This document shows positions 5,017 through 60,085 of a stretch of DNA of 64,000 nt, piece after piece. Source of the DNA: Clostridia bacterium (GTDB lineage: Bacteria > Bacillota > Clostridia > Acetivibrionales > UBA4821). The stretch lies in NCBI GenBank assembly GCA_041687355.1, contig JAWLCD010000010.1, forward strand, positions 2,371 through 66,370, in the 5' to 3' direction. Position 1 is the stretch's first letter. Every line of letters starts with the position of its first letter. The translations under genes were made by a program, and so were the position numbers. The notes under the pieces were generated by a model, which did not search any database, was not told the DNA's origin, and was given only the letters and a program-made list of their open reading frames with translations.

Positions 5017-6042
5017 CTAATCTTCGCTTATCGATGCCTCTGAAATACTTTCAACGTACTTGCTGTACTCATCAAAAAGCTTTCTATTCCTGTCATAGTC
5101 CTGATATGCCTGAAAACTGAATGAAGTAAATTTTTCTACATATTGCCTTTCTGCATTAATCTGCTTAATAATTCTCTCTACTGGGGCAGCGTTGAATTTA
5201 CTCTTCCCGTTTTCAATTTCTTCAACAAAGGTTTCAAGGTCTGACCACAGCTTGGTATTTCTACCCGAATATTCTACAGCATCCCGAGTTGCCTTGAACC
5301 ATTTTCCAACATTCTTTATGGCCTTGGTTCTATCTTTATCTTCACAAACAATCTCCCTTCTGCAACCTATTCCATCCTGAAGGGCGATAATATCTATATC
5401 GGTCTGTGAAAGTATATTGGACCACATATCTTTCCATTTGTTAGGTCCATATACTACATCTAGCGCCCTGTTAAAGAACGGTGAAATCATCAGAGGCAGG
5501 CCTGATACACGCCTGACATGGTTTATTAACAAATTATAATGTCTGGCAAGAATATTCTGCTTTTCGGAGGAGTTAAAATTCAAGTTATCGACTTCAAATG
5601 AACAGTACCAGCCTGCAAGCAGCTGAAACTCGCTTTCTTTCTGAAGCGCCCCATACCTGTTCCAGATATCATCAATAATTTCCCTGGATATCTCTGTTTC
5701 AACATCCATCCATTGATTAAATTCCCGCGGCGTTTTTGAAATGATCTTCCACCACTGGTCATTGGTGTTGAGGCCAATATATATCTTTATACCGTGTTTC
5801 CTGCCATAGGTAAGCATATTGGTAAGTAAGTCCTTCCTCACCACTCTTCCCGGCAGACTGCTCTGGTAGTAGGCTGTAGCCTTGTCATCACTACCCTTCC
5901 TGGTCTCAATCCACTGTAGAATTACATGGTCGAACAGTATTTTTTTGTACCGCTTAAAGTGCTGATCAAACTGTTCCTTATCCCAGTCTACAATATACTC
6001 CGGTTGAATAAACGTCCCTTCAAGATACTTCTTGCTATTCAT
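5017..6042 (-). CDS. DUF4434-like TIM-barrel/glycoside-hydrolase-fold protein (putative)
   Basis: 341-aa ORF. The N-terminal GTFIQP...ILQW...IKIYIGL pattern recalls DUF4434 proteins. Weak family recall. Confidence 0.5.
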   Translation of the reverse strand: MNSKKYLEGTFIQPEYIVDWDKEQFDQHFKRYKKILFDHVILQWIETRKGSDDKATAYYQSSLPGRVVRKDLLTNMLTYGRKHGIKIYIGLNTNDQWWKIISKTPREFNQWMDVETEISREIIDDIWNRYGALQKESEFQLLAGWYCSFEVDNLNFNSSEKQNILARHYNLLINHVRRVSGLPLMISPFFNRALDVVYGPNKWKDMWSNILSQTDIDIIALQDGIGCRREIVCEDKDRTKAIKNVGKWFKATRDAVEYSGRNTKLWSDLETFVEEIENGKSKFNAAPVERIIKQINAERQYVEKFTSFSFQAYQDYDRNRKLFDEYSKYVESISEASISED

Positions 6043-6165: not shown

Positions 6166-6300
6166 ATAAACAGGATTCTTGGATTCAGGTGGAGTTTTTT
6201 TCTCCATCTGAATCTTAGAAGCCGTTATCCAGGGGCGTAGCGCCGCTTAGCTCCCGCTTGAAGAAGAGGGAGTCTTAGCGGCGGTAGTCATCGGATAAAA
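6166..6300 (+). repeat. RepA copy A1 (core only, 135 nt)
   Basis: ATAAACAGGATTCTTGGATTCAGGTGGAG...CTCCATCTGAATCTTAGAAGCCGTTATCCAGG..GTAGCGCCGCTTAG..GGAGTCTTAGCGGCGGTAGTCATCGGATAAAA. Sits in the divergent gap upstream of ldcA. Confidence 0.9.
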
Positions 6301-7325: not shown

Positions 7326-7334
7326 TTTGGTTAA

Positions 7335-7412
7335 GGGAAATGAATTAACTGGAGAATAAGTTTATGGAGAAATCTGATTTCGTAATCCTTATGAGCTGTT
7401 AATTTATTTCCC
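7335..7412 (+). repeat. RepB copy B2 (minimal form; arms joined at the GAAATC-T-GATTTC palindrome)
   Basis: GGGAAATGAATTAACTGGAGAATAAGTTTATGGAGAAATCTGATTTCGTAATCCTTATGAGCTGTTAATTTATTTCCC. Confidence 0.8.
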
Positions 7413-7424
7413 TGTATATAAGAT

Positions 7425-9063: not shown

Positions 9064-9307
9064 ATAAACAGGATTCTAAGATTCAGGTGGAGTTTTGGCT
9101 AATAATTTCTTGTTATCTTTGATAACTTAGAAATCATTGTCCACCTTGTGTGCTCCAACTGAATCTTAGAATCCGTTATCCAGGAACGTAGCACCGCCGT
9201 AGACTACTAGTCGCTTGATTTCGAAGAAATCTTAGCGATAGTGTCCATCTTTGATGCTCCCACTTGAATGAGAGGGGAGTCTTAGCGGTGGTAGTCATCG
9301 GATAAAA
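9064..9307 (+). repeat. RepA copy A2 (244 nt; 54-nt modules in both hairpin apices: 9101-9154 and 9203-9256)
   Basis: Same core as A1 plus two insertions. Lies between rsmD and pdp. Confidence 0.9.
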
Positions 9308-9401
9308 ATCCTACTGATTATTTTATAATACATCTGGGAAATGTCAATTGTTTTTAGTTAAACCTTAGCTTGATTATGGAGATTCCCCCTTGTGATTTGA
9401 G

Positions 9402-9473
9402 AGGAAATGAATTAACCGGCGAATAAGTTTACCTTGATTTCGCAGTCCTTATGAGCGGTTAATTTACTTTCCC
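9402..9473 (+). repeat. RepB copy B3 (minimal form)
   Basis: AGGAAATGAATTAACCGGCGAATAAGTTTACCTTGATTTCGCAGTCCTTATGAGCGGTTAATTTACTTTCCC. Confidence 0.8.
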
Positions 9474-9529
9474 TGACTGATAAGAAAAAGGAGCTAAGGG
9501 TGCAATCCTTAACTCCTTCAGCATTAATT

Positions 9530-11493: not shown

Positions 11494-13119
11494 TTACACC
11501 CTCATATCAAACGAAAGTCTTTTAGTCCTGCCACTCAGAACCAGAACCTTATCCATCTCCGGCAGGCCAGTCTTTTTCTGAATAATCCCACAGTCAATAT
11601 TAACTATACTGTATCCCTTCTGGTTCAAGGCCTCTACCAAACTTGTTGTATTCTCCCTGATGAGCGAAGCAATCTCTTCATCCTGCACCCTGAAAGTAAA
11701 TCCTACAGCTCTGCCTGTGAGATTCACAAGCACCTCAGTCAGGCCTATGTTGGGCATCTGAAGTGACATTAGAATACTTGCATTGGATGGGTCAATTTTT
11801 TTTCGGGATTTTTTGAGAATATACAGCTCGCCGTTGGTATGCTGCCCCCAAATGTTAAGTGGTATTTGTATGAAAGTATTGTACTGGCTCATGCTGTTCA
11901 TGAACCTTATATTCTCCTCGGCCTGCCCGGTAAGCGCAAGCATTTCGTTCCTGCCTTCCCCTGTAGATAACACTCCCTTAAGGATATCCAGTTTAACAAG
12001 TATTTCCTTATACGAAGCACTGACCTGGAGGTCTTTTGCCAGGGTTTCAGATTTATTGCTTACAAAGTGCTTTTCAAATACCGCCTTAATCTCTTCCCTG
12101 ACATGTTCGGTACTGGCCCTGACTTCAGGTTGTTTTAAGTCAGTTTTATATATTTCTTCAGTCTTAATTTTCAATATTTGCTGGAACAGATTTTTTAGAG
12201 CTTCAGGCAGTTTGCCCAGAAAATTCTGGACACCATTTGGCTCAATGTTGTTAATCTGTTGTTTGAGCTGGTGGGTATTGAGATTATTAATCTCGCTTCG
12301 TATTTCAGGCAAACCATTTTTAATTTGCTGGTCAATACTATCAAGTAAAGCCTGCTTGATTGCCGGCAGGATGTCTTTACCGATTTGCGTCAAGGCCTCT
12401 GAACCCTGCGATTGTCCACTGGTCTGCAGCCCCTGTACTTCTTTATGCAAAGCAGCAGCCGTATGTCCAACTGCTGAGTTTTTCTTTGGAAGAGCTGAAA
12501 GTTTTTCGTACAGCATCACTATTTCAGTTTCGCTTAAATTGTCAATCAGATTAGTTATTGCCCTTAGCTGATTTCCCAGTACTGCCTTACCTTCTGTATA
12601 TTGGGCAAGCATGCCTATACTCTTCTCATTAGGCTCAATTCCCCTGCAAGTCAGGAATACAGCTTTCTGAACATCGAGTCCAGGGTTCTTTGAAATATGG
12701 TTAAGAACTGCTTGGACTCTTTCCCTGGTTACAGGCAGTTCGCGGGCTGTCAGTTCGTTAATTATTTCAACATTTCTCGGATTATTGGATAGATTCAGAG
12801 ACGCTAGAAGGCTATTTAACTGCTCCCTGCTCAGAGCACTTAATGAATTGCCAGGATTACTCTTCAGTGTTTCGATAAAGATTTTTCCGTCCCTTTTTTC
12901 ATTTATGATAAAGTCGACTACCTTTCCTTCCGTGAGTTCCAATGGAATCAGCATATTGGCAGTTACCGGTTTTCCTTCACCTATAGAGAGAATAACCTCA
13001 CTTCCTGATTTGCTAACAACCTGAGCACGGATAACATCTCCAACCTTGGCCTTTGCCAGTAATTTACCGGCCTCGAGTTCAAGTATATGTGCAATGGGTC
13101 TCAAACCATTAACCTTCAT
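11494..13119 (-). CDS. FliK-like (flagellar hook-length-control C-terminal domain-like) protein, YlqG-position
   Basis: 541 aa with a low-complexity, Q/N/S-rich middle. The C-terminal region (NIWGQHTNGELYIL...LVNLTGRAVGFTFRV) resembles Flg_hook. Adjacent to the FlhB-like gene. Confidence 0.6.
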   Translation of the reverse strand: MKVNGLRPIAHILELEAGKLLAKAKVGDVIRAQVVSKSGSEVILSIGEGKPVTANMLIPLELTEGKVVDFIINEKRDGKIFIETLKSNPGNSLSALSREQLNSLLASLNLSNNPRNVEIINELTARELPVTRERVQAVLNHISKNPGLDVQKAVFLTCRGIEPNEKSIGMLAQYTEGKAVLGNQLRAITNLIDNLSETEIVMLYEKLSALPKKNSAVGHTAAALHKEVQGLQTSGQSQGSEALTQIGKDILPAIKQALLDSIDQQIKNGLPEIRSEINNLNTHQLKQQINNIEPNGVQNFLGKLPEALKNLFQQILKIKTEEIYKTDLKQPEVRASTEHVREEIKAVFEKHFVSNKSETLAKDLQVSASYKEILVKLDILKGVLSTGEGRNEMLALTGQAEENIRFMNSMSQYNTFIQIPLNIWGQHTNGELYILKKSRKKIDPSNASILMSLQMPNIGLTEVLVNLTGRAVGFTFRVQDEEIASLIRENTTSLVEALNQKGYSIVNIDCGIIQKKTGLPEMDKVLVLSGRTKRLSFDMRV

Positions 13120-13160: not shown

Positions 13161-13335
13161 ATAAACAGGATTCTTGGATTCAGGTGAAGTTTCTCCAACT
13201 GAATCTTAGAAGCCGTTATCCAGGAACTTATCGCCGCTTAGATTACTAGTCGCTTGATTTCAAAGAAATCTTAGCGATAGTGTCCATCTTTGATGCTCCC
13301 GAAGGGAGTCTTAGCGGCGGTAGTCATCGGACAAA
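13161..13335 (+). repeat. RepA copy A3 (175 nt; 54-nt module in hairpin 2 at 13242-13295)
   Basis: Lies between the FliK-like gene and rnhB. It contains the rnhB stop codon. Confidence 0.9.
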
Positions 13336-14031
13336 TCTTCTGGTGAAGCTCCTTCTATGTAATGGACATAAGCCCTTTCGTCTTATTGCTTCAATATGCT
13401 CTGCCGTACCATATCCCTTGTGCCTGGCAAATCCGTAGCCTTCATGTATTTTATCAATTTCTATAATCATTCTGTCTCTTGTAACCTTTGCAATTATGGA
13501 TGCAGCAGCAATGGACTGACTCAATGAGTCGCCTCTTACCATTGGTTTCTGCGGTACTTCTATATCTTCAAGACTTTCAGCATCAATAAACAGCACTTCG
13601 GGCTTAACCTCAAGCTGCTCCACAGCCTTCCTCATTGCAAGCCTGGTTGCGTTTAATATGTTTATTTCATCTATAATATTATTATCGACAATTCCAACTC
13701 CCCAGGCCACTGCTTCCCTTACAATAACATCAAACAATTCTTCCCTTTTCTTTTCACTTAATTTCTTCGAGTCATTGACCCCTTCTATCAATAAACCCTT
13801 TGGAAGTATGACGGCAGAAGCAACAACTGGGCCAGCAAGTGGCCCTCTACCTGCCTCGTCAATTCCGGCGATATATGTTATTCCATTGAGGTATTCTTCA
13901 TCCTCATACTGCATCAGTTTATGCAGCCTGTCCAGCTCTTTCTGTAGATACTTGCTGCCCTCTTTTGACCTTGTAGTAGTCTTTATTAGCTTATACTCCA
14001 CTTTTATCCCCCAATACTTCAGGCTCTTCAA
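13324..14031 (-). CDS. rnhB: ribonuclease HII
   Basis: Contains IAGIDEAGRGPLAGPVVASAV and DSKKLSEKKRE. The stop codon lies inside the 3' end of RepA copy A3. Confidence 0.94.
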   Translation of the reverse strand: MKSLKYWGIKVEYKLIKTTTRSKEGSKYLQKELDRLHKLMQYEDEEYLNGITYIAGIDEAGRGPLAGPVVASAVILPKGLLIEGVNDSKKLSEKKREELFDVIVREAVAWGVGIVDNNIIDEINILNATRLAMRKAVEQLEVKPEVLFIDAESLEDIEVPQKPMVRGDSLSQSIAAASIIAKVTRDRMIIEIDKIHEGYGFARHKGYGTAEHIEAIRRKGLCPLHRRSFTRRFVR

Positions 14032-14886: not shown

Positions 14887-14911
14887 GTGACAGGGGACGG
14901 TTCTCTGTCAC
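14887..14911. repeat. RepH hairpin H1 (stem GTGACAG/CTGTCAC, loop GGGACGGTTCT)
   Basis: GTGACAGGGGACGGTTCTCTGTCAC. Exact reverse complement of H2. Confidence 0.85.
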
Positions 14912-14926
14912 ATTTCTTTAACGAAC

Positions 14927-14951
14927 GTGACAGAGAACCGTCCCCTGTCAC
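14927..14951. repeat. RepH hairpin H2
   Basis: GTGACAGAGAACCGTCCCCTGTCAC. Confidence 0.85.
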
Positions 14952-14968
14952 GTTTTAAGAAAAGAAAA

Positions 14969-14997
14969 GTGAGTCAAGGAACCGTCCCCTGACTCAC
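14969..14997 (-). terminator. rplS intrinsic terminator formed by RepH hairpin H3
   Basis: GTGAGTCAAGGAACCGTCCCCTGACTCAC. On the minus-strand RNA the hairpin is followed by UUUUCUUUUCUU. It starts 8 nt after the rplS stop. Confidence 0.8.
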
Positions 14998-17297: not shown

Positions 17298-17484
17298 TTA
17301 TCCGATGATTACCGCCGCTAAGACTCCACTCTTCTTCATCTGGGAGACAAGCGGCGCTACGTCCCTGGATAACGGCTTCTAAGATTCAGATAAAGCACAC
17401 AAGGTGGACAATGATTTCTAAGTTATCAAAGATAACAAGAAATTATTAGCCAAAACTCCTCCTGAATCCAAGAATCCTGTTTAT
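17298..17484 (-). repeat. RepA copy A4 (187 nt, inverted orientation; 54-nt module in hairpin 1 at 17394-17447)
   Basis: Reverse complement of the RepA core. Lies between rpsP and ffh and contains the ffh stop codon. Confidence 0.9.
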
Positions 17485-32430: not shown

Positions 32431-32499
32431 AATATTAAATGGCTACTTATACTATCAATTGAATCACAATTTATTTCCTTGTACTGAATTAATCAAACA

Positions 32500-32524
32500 G
32501 TGACAAGGAACCGTCCCCTGTCAC
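32500..32524 (-). terminator. RepH hairpin H4 overlapping the nfnB stop codon (putative terminator)
   Basis: GTGACAAGGAACCGTCCCCTGTCAC. The U-tract on the minus strand is weak (UGUUUGAUU). Confidence 0.6.
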
Positions 32525-33942
32525 ACTTTCTTTGTCCTGATGTACTCATCAATAGACTTTGCTGCCTTTTTCCCGGCTCCCATGGCCTGGATAACAGTAG
32601 CTGCACCGGTTACAATATCTCCTCCGGCAAACACACCTTCCCTGCTTGTACGGCCTGTAGACTCGTCAGCCACAATGCCTCCATGCCTGGTAAGCTCTAA
32701 CCCAACGGTAGTACCAGCTATCAAAGGATTAGGGGTTGTCCCTATGGACATTATAACCGTTTCTACTTCGATTACGTGCTCAGAGCCCTGCTTTTCCACA
32801 GGCCTTCTTCTTCCGGATGCATCCGGTTCTCCGAGCTCCATTTCAATGCACTCCAGACCTTTCACCCATCCATCATCAGTCCCCAGTATTCTGACCGGGT
32901 TGGTGAGCAGTCTGAACTCAATACCTTCTTCCTTTGCATGATGCACCTCTTCCCGTCTGGCAGGCATCTCATCCTCAGACCGCCTGTATACTATATAGAC
33001 CTTATCAGCCCCCATCCTGACAGCACAGCGGGCGGCATCCATTGCAACATTTCCGCCTCCAACCACTGCAACCCTTCTACCCACCCTGACTGGTGTATCG
33101 CATTCAGGGAACCTGTAAGCTTTCATTAAATTTATTCTGGTTAGAAACTCGTTTGCAGACATCACACCGTTAAGACTTTCACCCGGTATATTCATGAATG
33201 CCGGAAGGCCTGCTCCCGAGCCAATAAAGACTGCATCATACCCCTGGGTGAATAGTTCATCAATACTCACTATTTTTCCAACAACCATGTTGGTTTTTAT
33301 TTCAACTCCCAGTTTTTTAACACTCTCAATATCTTTCTGAACAATATCCTTTGGAAGCCTAAATTCAGGGATTCCATACATCAGCACCCCTCCGGGTACA
33401 TGAAAAGCTTCAAAAACTGTAACCTTGTAACCTGACTTTGCAAGGTCTCCGGCGCATGTAATTCCTGCTGGACCGGAACCTACTACCGCTACTTTTCCCT
33501 TATTCTCATCTCGTTCCAGACTACAGGCTTCCTCTTCTACTCCCTGTGTACTGCCACCGCAGTAGTCGGCAGCAAAACGCTCAAGCCTTCCGATGCCAAC
33601 CGGTTCACCCTTCTTGCCTCTAAGACAGTACTTCTCACACTGACTCTCCTGTGGGCATACCCTGCCGCAAACAGCCGGTAAGCTGTTGGTTTCTATAATC
33701 TTTCTGTACGCTTTGTCAAACTCCTTTTTCTGTATTAGTTTTATGAACTCGGGTATTTGAACATTTACTGGACAACCTTGCACACACGGTGAGTTTTTAC
33801 ACTGCAGACAGCGCATAGCTTCCTCGACAGCCTGCTCCTGAGTGTACCCTAGTGCGACCTCTTCAAAATTCTTATTTCTAACCTCAGGCTCCTGTTCAGG
33901 GATAGGAACCTTTTTCTCCGACATATTAGGCATTTTCGTCAC
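32521..33942 (-). CDS. nfnB: NADH-dependent reduced ferredoxin:NADP+ oxidoreductase subunit B (GltD/SudA-like, 'homotetrameric glutamate synthase')
   Basis: 473 aa with two Cys clusters (CLQCKNSPCVQGCP, CGRVCPQESQCEKYC) and two GxGxxG dinucleotide folds (VVGSGPAG, VVGGGNVA). Confidence 0.88.
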   Translation of the reverse strand: MTKMPNMSEKKVPIPEQEPEVRNKNFEEVALGYTQEQAVEEAMRCLQCKNSPCVQGCPVNVQIPEFIKLIQKKEFDKAYRKIIETNSLPAVCGRVCPQESQCEKYCLRGKKGEPVGIGRLERFAADYCGGSTQGVEEEACSLERDENKGKVAVVGSGPAGITCAGDLAKSGYKVTVFEAFHVPGGVLMYGIPEFRLPKDIVQKDIESVKKLGVEIKTNMVVGKIVSIDELFTQGYDAVFIGSGAGLPAFMNIPGESLNGVMSANEFLTRINLMKAYRFPECDTPVRVGRRVAVVGGGNVAMDAARCAVRMGADKVYIVYRRSEDEMPARREEVHHAKEEGIEFRLLTNPVRILGTDDGWVKGLECIEMELGEPDASGRRRPVEKQGSEHVIEVETVIMSIGTTPNPLIAGTTVGLELTRHGGIVADESTGRTSREGVFAGGDIVTGAATVIQAMGAGKKAAKSIDEYIRTKKV

Positions 33943-34771: not shown

Positions 34772-34857
34772 TATACCAACCCCCTTCTGAAAGATTATAG
34801 TACAAGTGAGTCAAAGATTTCAATCAAAAAATTAAAGGAGTTTCCTCTTCGGGTTTA

Positions 34858-34891
34858 GGGGAAATGAATTAACTAGTGAATAAGTTTATGG
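34858..34891 (+). repeat. RepB left-arm fragment (B5)
   Basis: GGGGAAATGAATTAACTAGTGAATAAGTTTATGG. No right arm is present. It abuts the recO stop codon. Confidence 0.6.
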
Positions 34892-49553: not shown

Positions 49554-49610
49554 TTCTGATTATAGGGAAGATGAATTTAACTGGCGAATAAGTTTGCGGA
49601 GAAATCTTAG

Positions 49611-49741
49611 ATAAACAGGATTCTTGGGTTCAGGTGGAGTTTTGGCTCCAACTGAATCTTAGAAGCCGTTATCCAGGGACGTAGCGCCGCTTTTCTATAA
49701 TATTAAAGCTGGAGTCTTAGCGGCGGTAGTCATCGGATAAA
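49611..49741 (+). repeat. RepA copy A5 (core only, 131 nt), nested inside RepB copy B4
   Basis: The core sequence is flanked by the RepB left arm and RepC. Confidence 0.9.
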
Positions 49742-49753
49742 TTATGCGAAGTT

Positions 49754-49853
49754 ATGCTCAAATTTCAGGAAGAATTGACAGGACGTCAATTCTAGGAATT
49801 ATTGAGCCACGATGGCGAATTAATTCCGGTCTGAAATTTAGTATAACAAGCAT
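49754..49853 (+). repeat. RepC copy C2
   Basis: Differs from C1 at only a handful of positions. Confidence 0.75.
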
Positions 49854-49958
49854 CTAGTTTATCTTGATTTCGCAGTCCTTATGAGTTGCTAATTCATTTT
49901 CCCTAACTAATGAATTACCCCTTAATCACATTATATGACCTGCGTATCGGGAGGGTTC

Positions 49959-50137
49959 ATAAACAGGATTCTTGGATTCAGGTGGAGTTTTTGGCTCCAT
50001 CTGAATCTTAGAAGCCGTTATCCAGGGACGTAGCGCCGCTTAGACTACTAGTCGCTTGTTTTCAAAGAAATCTTAGCGATAGTGTCCATCTTTGATGCTC
50101 CCGAGGGGAGTCTTAGCGGCGGTAGTCATCGGATAAA
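49959..50137 (+). repeat. RepA copy A6 (179 nt; 54-nt module in hairpin 2 at 50044-50097)
   Basis: Core plus module. Lies just upstream (on the + strand) of the yebC terminator hairpin. Confidence 0.9.
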
Positions 50138-50145
50138 CTGCAAAA

Positions 50146-56782: not shown

Positions 56783-56827
56783 AAGGTAGAGGGACGCGTC
56801 ATTCGCTTCGCCCAAGAAACGTCCTCC
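56783..56827 (+). repeat. RepE copy E5
   Basis: AAGGTAGAGGGACGCGTCATTCGCTTCGCCCAAGAAACGTCCTCC, in the cbiM-cbiQ gap. Confidence 0.75.
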
Positions 56828-56837
56828 TTGATTACCA

Positions 56838-56874
56838 TGGTCACACCATTCACTTCACTCAAGGAACTTCCCCC
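56838..56874 (+). repeat. RepE copy E6
   Basis: TGGTCACACCATTCACTTCACTCAAGGAACTTCCCCC, in tandem with E5. Confidence 0.7.
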
Positions 56875-56896
56875 TTTGATTAAATGAGTCAATCTG

Positions 56897-59895: not shown

Positions 59896-60084
59896 ATAAA
59901 CAGGATTCTTAGGTTCAGGTGGAGTTTTAGGCTAATAATTTCTTGTTATCTTTGATAACTTAGAAATCATTGTCCACCTTGTGTGCTCCGACTGAATCTT
60001 AGAAGCCGTTATCCAGGGACGTAGCGCCGCTTCTCCCTCACTTGAAGAAGAGGGGAGTCTTAGCGGCGGTAGTCATCGGATAAA
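59896..60084 (+). repeat. RepA copy A7 (189 nt; 54-nt module in hairpin 1 at 59934-59987)
   Basis: Fills the whole gap between the two PP2C genes. Confidence 0.9.
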
Positions 60085-60085
60085 A

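Follow-up and report, generated by a model that had tools for sequence, protein, structure and literature searches.

A conserved T·T mismatch in the hairpins of RepA, a structured mobile repeat of Clostridia, as a candidate recognition motif

Introduction

Why would a repeated DNA element keep a mismatch at one fixed place in stems whose neighboring base pairs are free to change? The question is raised by RepA, an interspersed repeat of which one copy occupies positions 13161 to 13335 of a 64,000-nt stretch of DNA from a Clostridia bacterium (contig JAWLCD010000010.1, positions 2,371 to 66,370, forward strand; hereafter the window). An earlier interpretation made from the letters of this DNA alone (the sequence-only reading) had noted that most RepA helices, those of two 54-nt modules found within RepA, and a stem of a second repeat, RepB, carry a CTTG/CTTAG element that forces a T·T (U·U) mismatch, and had proposed that the element is a binding site for a structure-specific protein. 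Here, we followed the mismatch through RepA copies of diverse genomic and metagenomic origin. RepA belongs to a familiar type of element, the structured and non-autonomous interspersed repeats, in which it forms a new family with a candidate recognition motif and an insertion site.

Conservation and exact form of the mismatch

All the sequences quoted in the sequence-only reading were found in the window as described. In hairpin 1 (H1) of the 13161 copy, TTCTTGGATTC (13171-13181) pairs with GAATCTTAGAA (13201-13211), and CTTGG (13173-13177) lies opposite CTTAG (13205-13209), giving C-G, T-A, T13175·T13207, G·T, and G-C. In the outer helix of hairpin 2 (H2), CCGCTTAG (13234-13241) pairs with CTTAGCGG (13310-13317). 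The inner CTCCC/GGGAG helix (13296-13308) had been described as lacking the element, and it does.

Conservation was evaluated in an alignment (A2) of 93 distinct module-free RepA copies from many genomes and metagenomes, with the structure specified by hand. The mismatch persists in most of these further copies, about 93% of them in H1 and 95% in H2. T·T is found in 88 of 93 copies in H2 and in 81 of 92 in H1 as aligned, the latter count becoming 86 of 92 after correct reading of five misaligned copies with a miniature H1. These mini-H1 variants keep TTCTTAG/CTTAGAA around the inner stems GAG/CTC, CATC/GATG, and TGC/GCA. The T-A pair beside the mismatch is present in 88/92 (H1) and 89/93 (H2) copies, and the C-G pair of the core in 78/93 (plus 10 with T·G) in H1 and 86/93 in H2.

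The element was originally described as CTT(A/G)G on both arms in the same polarity. This form holds for part of the copies; the conserved element is 5' CTT(N) with 3' TTAG, and the fourth base of the 5' arm is variable, being G, A, or T, and in H2 the 5' arm tends to read CTT and then C, A, G, or T. On the 3' strand, the second T is almost invariant, whether paired, wobble-paired, mismatched, or bulged. Its partner in H1 is G (39 copies), A (32), or T (11), and it is bulged with no partner in the modules M1 and M2, in RepB, and in one H2 subfamily. The conserved object is 5'-CTT(N) facing 5'-TTAG, in which C-G and T-A pairs are followed by one T facing two Ts. When the window was scanned for such a configuration, only RepA and its modules were returned, plus one likely chance match.

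Ten copies have the T·T replaced by a standard pair, six in H1 and four in H2. All are singletons, and the closest relative of each keeps T·T. In at least three of these repairs, several bases of an arm were converted so that it matches the opposite arm exactly, namely in L086 (a perfect 22-bp H1), L009 (CCAAG), and L144 (CTAAT), where L numbers denote the retrieved DNA. Multi-base conversion to exact complementarity is the signature of template switching in DNA quasi-palindromes. Since repairs recur but have founded no subfamily in the sample, the mismatch appears to be needed for propagation, a conclusion for which this is indirect evidence.

Fold and covariation

A module-free RepA unit measures ~134 nt and consists of ATAAA-CAG, H1, CC, GTTATCC, AGGGAC, H2 (preceded by GTAG), TCATC, and GGATAAA, with TTATCC pairing with GGATAA to form a third helix, P2. 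The junctions ATAAACAG, CGTTATCCAGGGACGTAGC, and GGTAGTCATCGGATAAA are without variation. Standard pairs make up 81.8% of the cells of the A2 structure compared to 74.7% in shuffles, and 26 pairs show double changes. Compensatory cells number 311, against 99.5 ± 11.8 in shuffles, and none of 500 shuffles reached that value. The outer stem of H2, for example, occurs as ACCGC/GCGGT, AGCTC/GAGCT, CGCTC/GAGCG, TGCTC/GAGCA, GCCGC/GCGGC, and GCCAC/GTGGC. P2 is paired in 96% of cells with zero double changes; being invariant, it is neither supported nor contradicted by covariation. Compared with shuffled controls, the fold is more stable both for the 13161 copy (z = -4.7) and for the module-free 6166 copy (z = -9.0).

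When the 3' partners were slid by 1 to 3 columns, 38-54% of cells were paired in place of 81.8%, and the covariation score, 0.215 in the original register, fell to 0.04-0.06. This collapse excludes the possibility that the helices are equally well explained by perfect pairing in an alternative register. The suggestion of a non-Watson-Crick feature inside otherwise covarying stems was borne out, as T·T stays constant amid the compensatory changes.

Strand preference

In 43 of 46 copies, the strand carrying T·T and G·T (forward) forms a more stable fold than the complementary strand (means of -59.1 vs -50.2 kcal/mol, RNA parameters). For the 6166 reference copy, the values are -68.7 vs -53.5 kcal/mol with RNA parameters and -36.5 vs -28.6 kcal/mol with DNA parameters. 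G·T cells also outnumber A·C cells (180 vs 95). The stronger forward-strand fold and the G·T excess indicate that selection acts on one single strand.

The orientation of RepA relative to flanking genes showed no preference (86 vs 85 among 171 copies). Read-through transcription would therefore provide the favored strand only half the time, and a transcript role is not needed to explain the copies. An orientation bias in the first 48 copies (33:15) was gone at 171 copies and was dropped. We lean towards a DNA substrate in view of the absence of gene-orientation preference, the selfish-DNA behavior described below, and the multi-base repairs.

Mobility and the ATAAA site

RepA is a mobile DNA element. 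More than 90% of the copies have ATAAA at both ends, and empty and filled sites can be compared directly. RepB without RepA (L046, L008) reads CTTAG-ATAAA-CTATGCG, and the filled form reads CTTAG-ATAAA(CAGG...CATCGGATAAA)CTATGCG, with the insert in parentheses. In the Tindallia contig L031, RepA splits a RAYT-like gene; removal of 129 nt (RepA plus one pentamer) restores the open reading frame (ORF), which then aligns end to end with an intact homologue. Another RAYT-like gene, a truncated one in L067, is interrupted by RepA at ACC-TTTAT, where the intact paralogue has ACCTTCATG. The element has no terminal inverted repeats, its 5' end CAGGATTCTTGG being unrelated to the reverse complement of its 3' end CCGATGACTACC. 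A classical DDE-type miniature inverted-repeat transposable element was rejected on this ground and on the flanking pentamer, which is ATAAA in >90% and not site-variable.

Three RAYT-like genes were present in the retrieved DNA, and two of them (L031:55-990, L067:7712-8000) are interrupted by RepA, in different codons and each at TTTAT. This could be accidental, could reflect a dispensable gene that tolerates insertions, or could come from local hopping close to where the enzyme originates.

Copies within a genome are 85-97% identical. Head-to-tail arrays of two or three units were seen at L008:2197-2465, L071:5243-5499, L044:3880-4135, L072:2250-2471, L013:5473-5727, L081:1983-2219, and L149:1171-1399. 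At the junctions of tandem arrays, one ATAAA-type pentamer is common to both units. Some tandem units are shortened; a unit in L072, for example, has no H2 apex.

Distribution of the RepA family

An exact-pattern scan of representative genomes placed RepA, among the listed matches, in metagenome-assembled genomes (MAGs) of Clostridia from at least Tindallia, Lutispora, "Clostridiaceae", and "Clostridia". A second scan with the junction sequence as query returned many more copies from fermentation, digester, and soda-lake metagenomes. This query does not include the motif, so the motif itself was not selected for. A profile search of 1.4 Mb of Clostridia MAG and metagenome DNA gave 264 matches, with at least 134 near-full copies.

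A somewhat degenerate copy, 73% identical, lies on the Clostridium tetani plasmid NC_022778.1 (L195, 46702-46839), in an unannotated spacer upstream of a hypothetical gene. It was the only match in the plasmid collection and, among the copies found here, the only one in a cultured, named organism; none was found in the phage collection. A search of three RepA copies against Rfam 15, at gathering and permissive thresholds, returned only sub-threshold miRNA-like or CRISPR-repeat noise, and a literature search with conserved RepA strings yielded no match in the papers covered.

Variants with an internally duplicated 5' half (TTAACAGG, a mini-hairpin, then GCGTTATCC) were observed in L097, L103, L104, L111, L165, L173, L181, and L187, and the L173 variant has an extra 51-nt insert that itself contains a hairpin. 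Growth of RepA by modules thus recurs across different lineages.

Modules M1 and M2

M1 sits inside H2 of the 13161 copy, where CGCTTGATTTC (13251-13261) pairs with GAAATCTTAGCG (13265-13276). The related module M2 (CTTGTTATC/GATAACTTAG) occupies the H1 loop of other copies, at 9099-9152, 59932-59985, and 17396-17449 (- strand). Both 54-nt modules had been described as carrying the element in a covarying helix. The pairings are present, and the covariation rests on a single M1-vs-M2 comparison. Neither module was found as a free element or in further lineages; both are confined to RepA copies of the window and of one MAG (two close lineages).

RepB and TwoAYGGAY

In RepB, GAGAAATCTTAG (49599-49610) pairs with CTTGATTTCG (49863-49872). 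The sequence-only reading called this the apical stem and the same helix as in RepA. The CTTAG/CTTG pairing is indeed present, but the stem is the basal stem of TwoAYGGAY (RF01731). RepB matches this family at 49731-49878 (56.8 bits) and 1178-1305 (45.5 bits), above the gathering score of 43, and shows two AYGGAY-loop hairpins on a basal stem; RepA itself gives no match. In the Rfam basal stem (gcagcuUagauac/guauCcuagcugc), CU[U]AG faces CUAG and the bulged U is conserved, and the CTTAG/CTTG loop of RepB lies in the same place with nearly the same sequence as this consensus. TwoAYGGAY is listed as a probable RNA (PMC2864571), and a 2026 preprint describes it as multicopy, mobile-element-like, and tied to REP (repetitive extragenic palindrome) arrays in Pseudomonas (bioRxiv 10.64898/2026.09.22.753630).

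RepA is a later insertion at ATAAA in the RepB stem, as the empty RepB copies of L046 and L008 illustrate, and TwoAYGGAY is absent at 11 metagenome loci carrying RepA. RepB copies came from two close lineages only and are uninformative about covariation of the RepB helix. Paralogy, and not independent maintenance, may account for the motif common to the modules and RepB.

The RepB copy at 1023-1343 has a ~66-nt GC-rich insert (CAAATGCTATCGGGTAGCCCAGGG...) at 1118-1183, where the other copy has RepA (49611-49742). This point of the TwoAYGGAY basal stem seems to be an insertion hot spot. Partial RepB shells devoid of the TwoAYGGAY core were seen at 7331-7421, 9398-9481, 34855-34891, and 56783-56882; at 7366-7380, GGAGAAATC is joined directly to TGATTTCG. 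These shells look like deletion derivatives between short direct repeats. The 5' piece of the shell (GGACGCGGCCATTCGCTTCGCTCAAGGAAC(T/G)TCCCC) is also found alone.

RepA copies in the window and their surroundings

The window holds seven RepA copies, six on the + strand and one on the - strand (Table 1). The 13161 copy lies between a FliK-like gene (11494-13119, -) and rnhB (RNase HII, -), both assigned by Pfam. The ORF called for rnhB (13324-14031, -) has a TTG start within the 3' end of RepA, and the RNase HII domain begins at residue 55; translation probably starts further downstream in reality, so that RepA probably does not overlap the gene. At 13222-13233, the 13161 copy carries a degenerate junction, AGGAACTTATC, replacing the otherwise invariant AGGGACGTAGC, and GTAG is lost. 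A AGGAACTTATC-type junction also occurs in L009:5222 and L013:5599. These copies may represent a small subfamily or a decaying lineage.

Table 1. Coordinates of RepA, module, and RepB features in the window
Feature	Position	Strand	Remarks
RepA copy considered here	13161..13335	+	ATAAA, CAG, H1, CC, P2 5' half, junction, H2 with M1 inserted, TCATC, P2 3' half ending ACAAA
H1 of 13161 copy	13168..13214	+	5' arm 13168-13189, 3' arm 13193-13214
P2 5' half TTATCC	13216..13221	+	pairs with GGACAA 13329-13334; GGATAA in most copies
H2 outer helix 5' arm CGCCGCTTAG	13232..13241	+	CTT 13237-13239; T13239 opposite T13312
Module M1, 54 nt	13242..13295	+	hairpin with T·T and bulged T, then mini-hairpin CATC-TTT-GATG
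H2 apex CTCCC-GAA-GGGAG	13296..13308	+	no motif
H2 outer helix 3' arm	13309..13323	+	bulged T13309, CTTAG (13310-13314), CGGCG, then GTAG
Module-free RepA copy	6166..6300	+	used as reference
RepA copy with M2 and M1	9064..9307	+	M2 9099-9152, M1 9203-9256; H1 5' arm CTAAG, mismatch repaired
RepA copy with M2	17298..17484	-	M2 17396-17449
RepA copy	49611..49742	+	inserted at ATAAA of RepB (TwoAYGGAY) basal stem
RepA copy with M1	49959..50138	+	M1 50044-50097
RepA copy with M2	59896..60085	+	M2 59932-59985; takes up all of the spacer separating two MASE3/SpoIIE genes
RepB basal stem 5' strand GAGAAAT-CTTAG-ATAAAC	49599..49616	+	CTTAG 49606-49610
RepB basal stem 3' strand GTTTAT-CTTG-ATTTCG	49857..49872	+	pairs with 49599-49616, leaving T/TT internal loop

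Proposed role of the motif

It is quite possible, and we propose it tentatively, that the motif is a recognition and strand-discrimination mark for an HUH/Y1-type single-strand DNA enzyme. RepA would then be a non-autonomous mobile DNA of ~130 nt, free of terminal inverted repeats and flanked by ATAAA on both sides, whose propagation would depend on the fold of one single strand, with subterminal H1 and H2 and the closing TTATCC/GGATAA. The conserved irregularity, occurring once per hairpin, would serve as the mark for the enzyme processing the folded strand; this enzyme would most likely be of the single-strand DNA type, HUH/Y1, and act in trans. M1, M2, and the RepB/TwoAYGGAY stem could bind the same factor or descend from the same hairpins. 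The fold, covariation, mismatch conservation, strand asymmetry, mobility, and ATAAA site are direct observations; a protein that reads the motif, DNA rather than RNA as its substrate, and its enzyme class are what we infer from them.

Irregular hairpins are recognized by several enzymes of this type. The E. coli TnpA_REP needs the bulge of the REP stem (two conserved mismatches) and a 5' GTAG, and a regular stem abolishes activity. In IS608 TnpA, an unpaired stem T (T17/T37) enters a hydrophobic pocket and confers strand specificity, and ISDra2 TnpA contacts a mismatched stem base, again conferring strand specificity (PMC8266576, PMC5027513). The hairpin apex bound by the IS608 and ISDra2 TnpA proteins, 5'-CTT(T/C)AG-3', is described as DNA-specific; its C pairs with G, its T-A pair is of the Hoogsteen type, and two pyrimidines form the loop (bioRxiv 10.1101/2024.12.22.630000). 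The RepA core has the same three elements (C-G, T-A, and two Ts), a likeness that we take as an analogy. Some RepA variants do carry a CTTCAG apex, either in mini-H1 (TTCTTAGTG-CTTCAG-CACTTAGAA) or in H2 (CTCCCA-CTTCAG-TGGGAG). Together with CTTTAG hairpins in L119, these variants make the likeness to the apex less arbitrary. Hairpins with a CTT(T/C)AG apex, which could point to an IS200-type system residing in the window, were not enriched there (one match vs 0.27 expected).

L119 is a RepA-bearing contig with an IS200-like tnpA gene at 5060-5740 (142 aa; Y1_Tnp, 150 bits). A CCCGA-CTTTAG-TCGGG hairpin lies upstream of this gene and a CCCTGTA-CTTTAG-TGCAGGG hairpin downstream. Between the hairpins are about seven CTTTAG repeats spaced 12-18 nt apart, several in mini-hairpins, which is unusual for an IS200 end.

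RepA resembles IS200/IS605 elements and their gene-less derivatives, the palindrome-associated transposable elements (PATEs), in having no terminal inverted repeats, in lying next to a short specific sequence, in its strand-specific fold, and in an unpaired or mismatched stem T, which IS200/IS605 use for recognition (PMC5027513, PMC8266576). Its subterminal imperfect hairpins leave 8 nt at the 5' end and 12 nt at the 3' end of the element and share the CTT/TTAG T·T core only. The complementarity of TTAT(CC) to the terminal (GG)ATAA recalls the pairing between guide and cleavage site in IS200/IS605. RepA differs from these elements in that the motif of canonical copies is inside the stem and not at the apex, and in that only 3 nt separate the left boundary from the foot of H1, leaving no space for a left guide.

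Similarities to the REP/RAYT system were also apparent. Both are high-copy intergenic hairpin repeats that also occur in tandem, and RAYT-like genes are present in RepA-bearing genomes. In REP/RAYT, the folded single strand is recognized strand-specifically, with a required stem irregularity and a 5' GTAG (PMC8266576). H2 of RepA has a nearly invariant GTAG before it and conserved mismatches, but it is part of a larger unit: RepA is a fixed two-hairpin element of ~130 nt with invariant junctions and an ATAAA site, not a palindrome of 20-40 nt.

A second hairpin repeat, GTGACA-GGGGACGGTTCT-CTGTCAC, with a variable stem and a conserved loop, was noticed in the window at 14887-14911 (+), at 14927-14951 and 14968-14995 (opposite orientation), and at 32495-32529, as an inverted doublet with a third copy. 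In L067, inverted copies of this hairpin at 75-100 and about 925-950 flank an intact RAYT-like gene, the classical REPtron arrangement. The AGGGGACG of the second hairpin resembles the invariant RepA junction CAGGGACGT.

The modular pneumococcal BOX elements and the structured RUP, Correia/NEMIS, and ERIC repeats are intergenic, modular, strongly folding, non-coding, and mobilized in trans. RepA is comparable in being intergenic, folded, and non-coding and in its optional 54-nt modules M1 and M2. It has neither terminal inverted repeats nor sequence similarity to them and, unlike them, shows extensive compensatory covariation and a conserved mismatch. An integron attC-like site and an IS110 bridge RNA were rejected for want of matching conserved sequences and variable internal loops. 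CsrA-type GGA sites were likewise discarded: the GGA triplets of RepA lie in stems, and one is lost in a subfamily.

Evidence against an HUH/Y1 enzyme

Several findings weigh against an HUH/Y1-type enzyme as the reader of the motif. No recurrent transposase or protein family was found near RepA in the 1.4 Mb searched around the copies, and no long element with RepA ends was detected there, nor any pair of a 5' end and a 3' end >150 nt apart. No Y1 gene was detected in the window with hand-written queries. The IS200-like element of L119 has ends unrelated to RepA. The RAYT-like gene of L067 (Y1_Tnp; NF047646, 77.6 bits vs a cut-off of 80), the one such gene observed between repeats, is flanked by inverted copies of the other hairpin, GACAAGGGGACG(C/T)TTCTCTTGTC, which is likely the cognate REP of this enzyme in place of RepA. 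A REPtron has its RAYT gene flanked by inverted repeats; RepA interrupts two RAYT-like genes rather than flanking them, and no REPtron built on RepA was encountered.

The structural parallels have their own limits. H1 and H2 share the motif only, not a whole hairpin as the IS608 ends do, and a further helix separates the two Ts of RepA, so that the likeness to the CTT(T/C)AG apex is analogy only. IS200/IS605 elements are biased towards the lagging-strand template (PMC5027513), and RepA is not: by GC skew, 85 of 171 copies lie on C-rich and 86 on G-rich strands (p = 1), or 64 vs 72 where |skew| > 0.08. Empty sites have a single ATAAA and filled sites one on each side of RepA, which fits equally a 5-bp duplication or target-adjacent insertion of an element carrying its own terminal ATAAA, and the L118/L107 empty-site pair is ambiguous, its flanks being AT-rich and diverged. 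Covariation and G·T pairs fit RNA equally well. Finally, RepA copies are related by descent, and their counts are not independent events.

With neither a cognate transposase nor a replication-orientation bias, membership of RepA in IS200/IS605 or REP/RAYT is not established, and we do not claim it; we liken RepA to a strand-specific folded-ssDNA substrate whose stems keep an irregularity. The earlier interpretation of the element as a structure-specific recognition site keeps the support of the conserved mismatch, the strand-specific fold, mobility, and literature precedent, but no Y1 transposase with RepA-like ends was found. A bolder version, which we regard as improbable, is that RepA is the substrate of a new single-strand DNA mobilization system of Clostridia. 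A Hoogsteen-type CTT|TAG motif, split between the strands of the stems, would be read in this case; TTATCC would pair with GGATAA/ATAAA, insertion at ATAAA would be free of replication-strand bias, and the same factor would act on TwoAYGGAY, so that this orphan family would gain a mechanism.

Alternative explanations

The main rival is that RepA works as RNA, which we consider unlikely. A U·U/bulged-U loop (5'-CUU/5'-UUAG) in the forward transcript would be the target of a nuclease or RNA-binding protein that also binds the TwoAYGGAY basal stem, and RepA would spread as functional RNA modules or via an RNA intermediate. A classic RNA signature is seen in the covariation, in the G·U pairs, and in the forward strand, which is ~9 kcal/mol more stable. 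TwoAYGGAY, the probable RNA mentioned above, has the CU[U]AG/CUAG basal stem with its conserved bulged U, RepA lies inside this very stem and extends it with its ATAAAC end, and the modules sit in loops like expansion segments. Against this, the balanced gene orientation means that about half the copies are transcribed as the weaker strand, and no promoter- or terminator-like sequence was seen by eye (no scan was run) in the conserved element, nor a T run after H2. RepA interrupts coding genes and forms tandem arrays, like selfish DNA, and the correction of whole arms to perfect complementarity points to DNA hairpins. RepA also occurs without TwoAYGGAY at the 11 other loci and matches no Rfam family.

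A motif that is inherited and not selected is a more doubtful explanation. H1, H2, M1, M2, and the RepB stem would be paralogues of one ancestral hairpin, with T·T kept as the copies are young and derived from few masters. M2 (TTTCTTG...CTTAGAAA) does resemble H1 (ATTCTTGG...CTTAGAAG), M1 (CGCTTG...CTTAGCG) resembles the outer helix of H2 (CCGCTTAG...CTTAGCGG), and M1 and the RepB stem have the exact strings CTTGATTTC and GAAATCTTAG in common. The confinement of the modules to RepA in two close lineages and the high identity of copies within a genome are in agreement with such descent. However, the subfamilies have diverged enough to fix many compensatory changes beside the motif. A single T-to-A change would improve the helix, and repairs arose at least ten times without any spreading. 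The second 3' T is moreover invariant while its partner is G, A, T, or none. Inheritance thus explains why the modules and RepB share the motif, not the resistance of the mismatch to repair.

The mismatches might instead only guard against the instability of long palindromes (SbcCD cleavage, slippage), in which case any irregularity would suffice. Other conserved mismatches exist: the foot of H2 has G·G in 77/93 copies, and position 10 of H1 has a mismatch that varies among A·G, G·A, and A·A. Moreover, the perfect 22-bp H1 of L086 is a singleton. We judge this account very doubtful: the identity of T·T, its position, and its flanking pairs are the same in two unrelated stems and in all subfamilies, and short helices (M1, M2, mini-H1; 10-14 bp), too short to be at risk, keep it.

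It is highly improbable that a sequence-specific factor needs TTAG/CTTAG on both arms as a direct repeat, in duplex or in the unfolded strand, with the mismatch as a by-product: the 3'-arm TTAG is nearly invariant in H1 and H2, and the Tindallia type keeps TTAG on both arms despite an extra G·G (TTTAG/GTTAG), but the H1 5' arm is CTTGG, CTTTG, or CTTGA more often than CTTAG, the H2 5' arm is CTT then any base, and only the facing Ts are conserved.

Significance

The comparative evidence is unusually clean, with many compensatory changes around a mismatch that stays, and it yields a concrete candidate for a recognition determinant (C-G, T-A, and a T facing TT) together with a defined insertion site, ATAAA. 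These results touch two open problems, namely the way in which REP-like elements move in bacteria other than Proteobacteria and the nature of the multicopy TwoAYGGAY elements. RepA fills whole intergenic spacers and can disrupt genes, and recognizing it during annotation prevents spurious ORF starts and small-RNA calls. A widespread structured repeat family of Clostridia is newly defined here, present in Tindallia, Lutispora, uncultured lineages, metagenomes, and a C. tetani plasmid.

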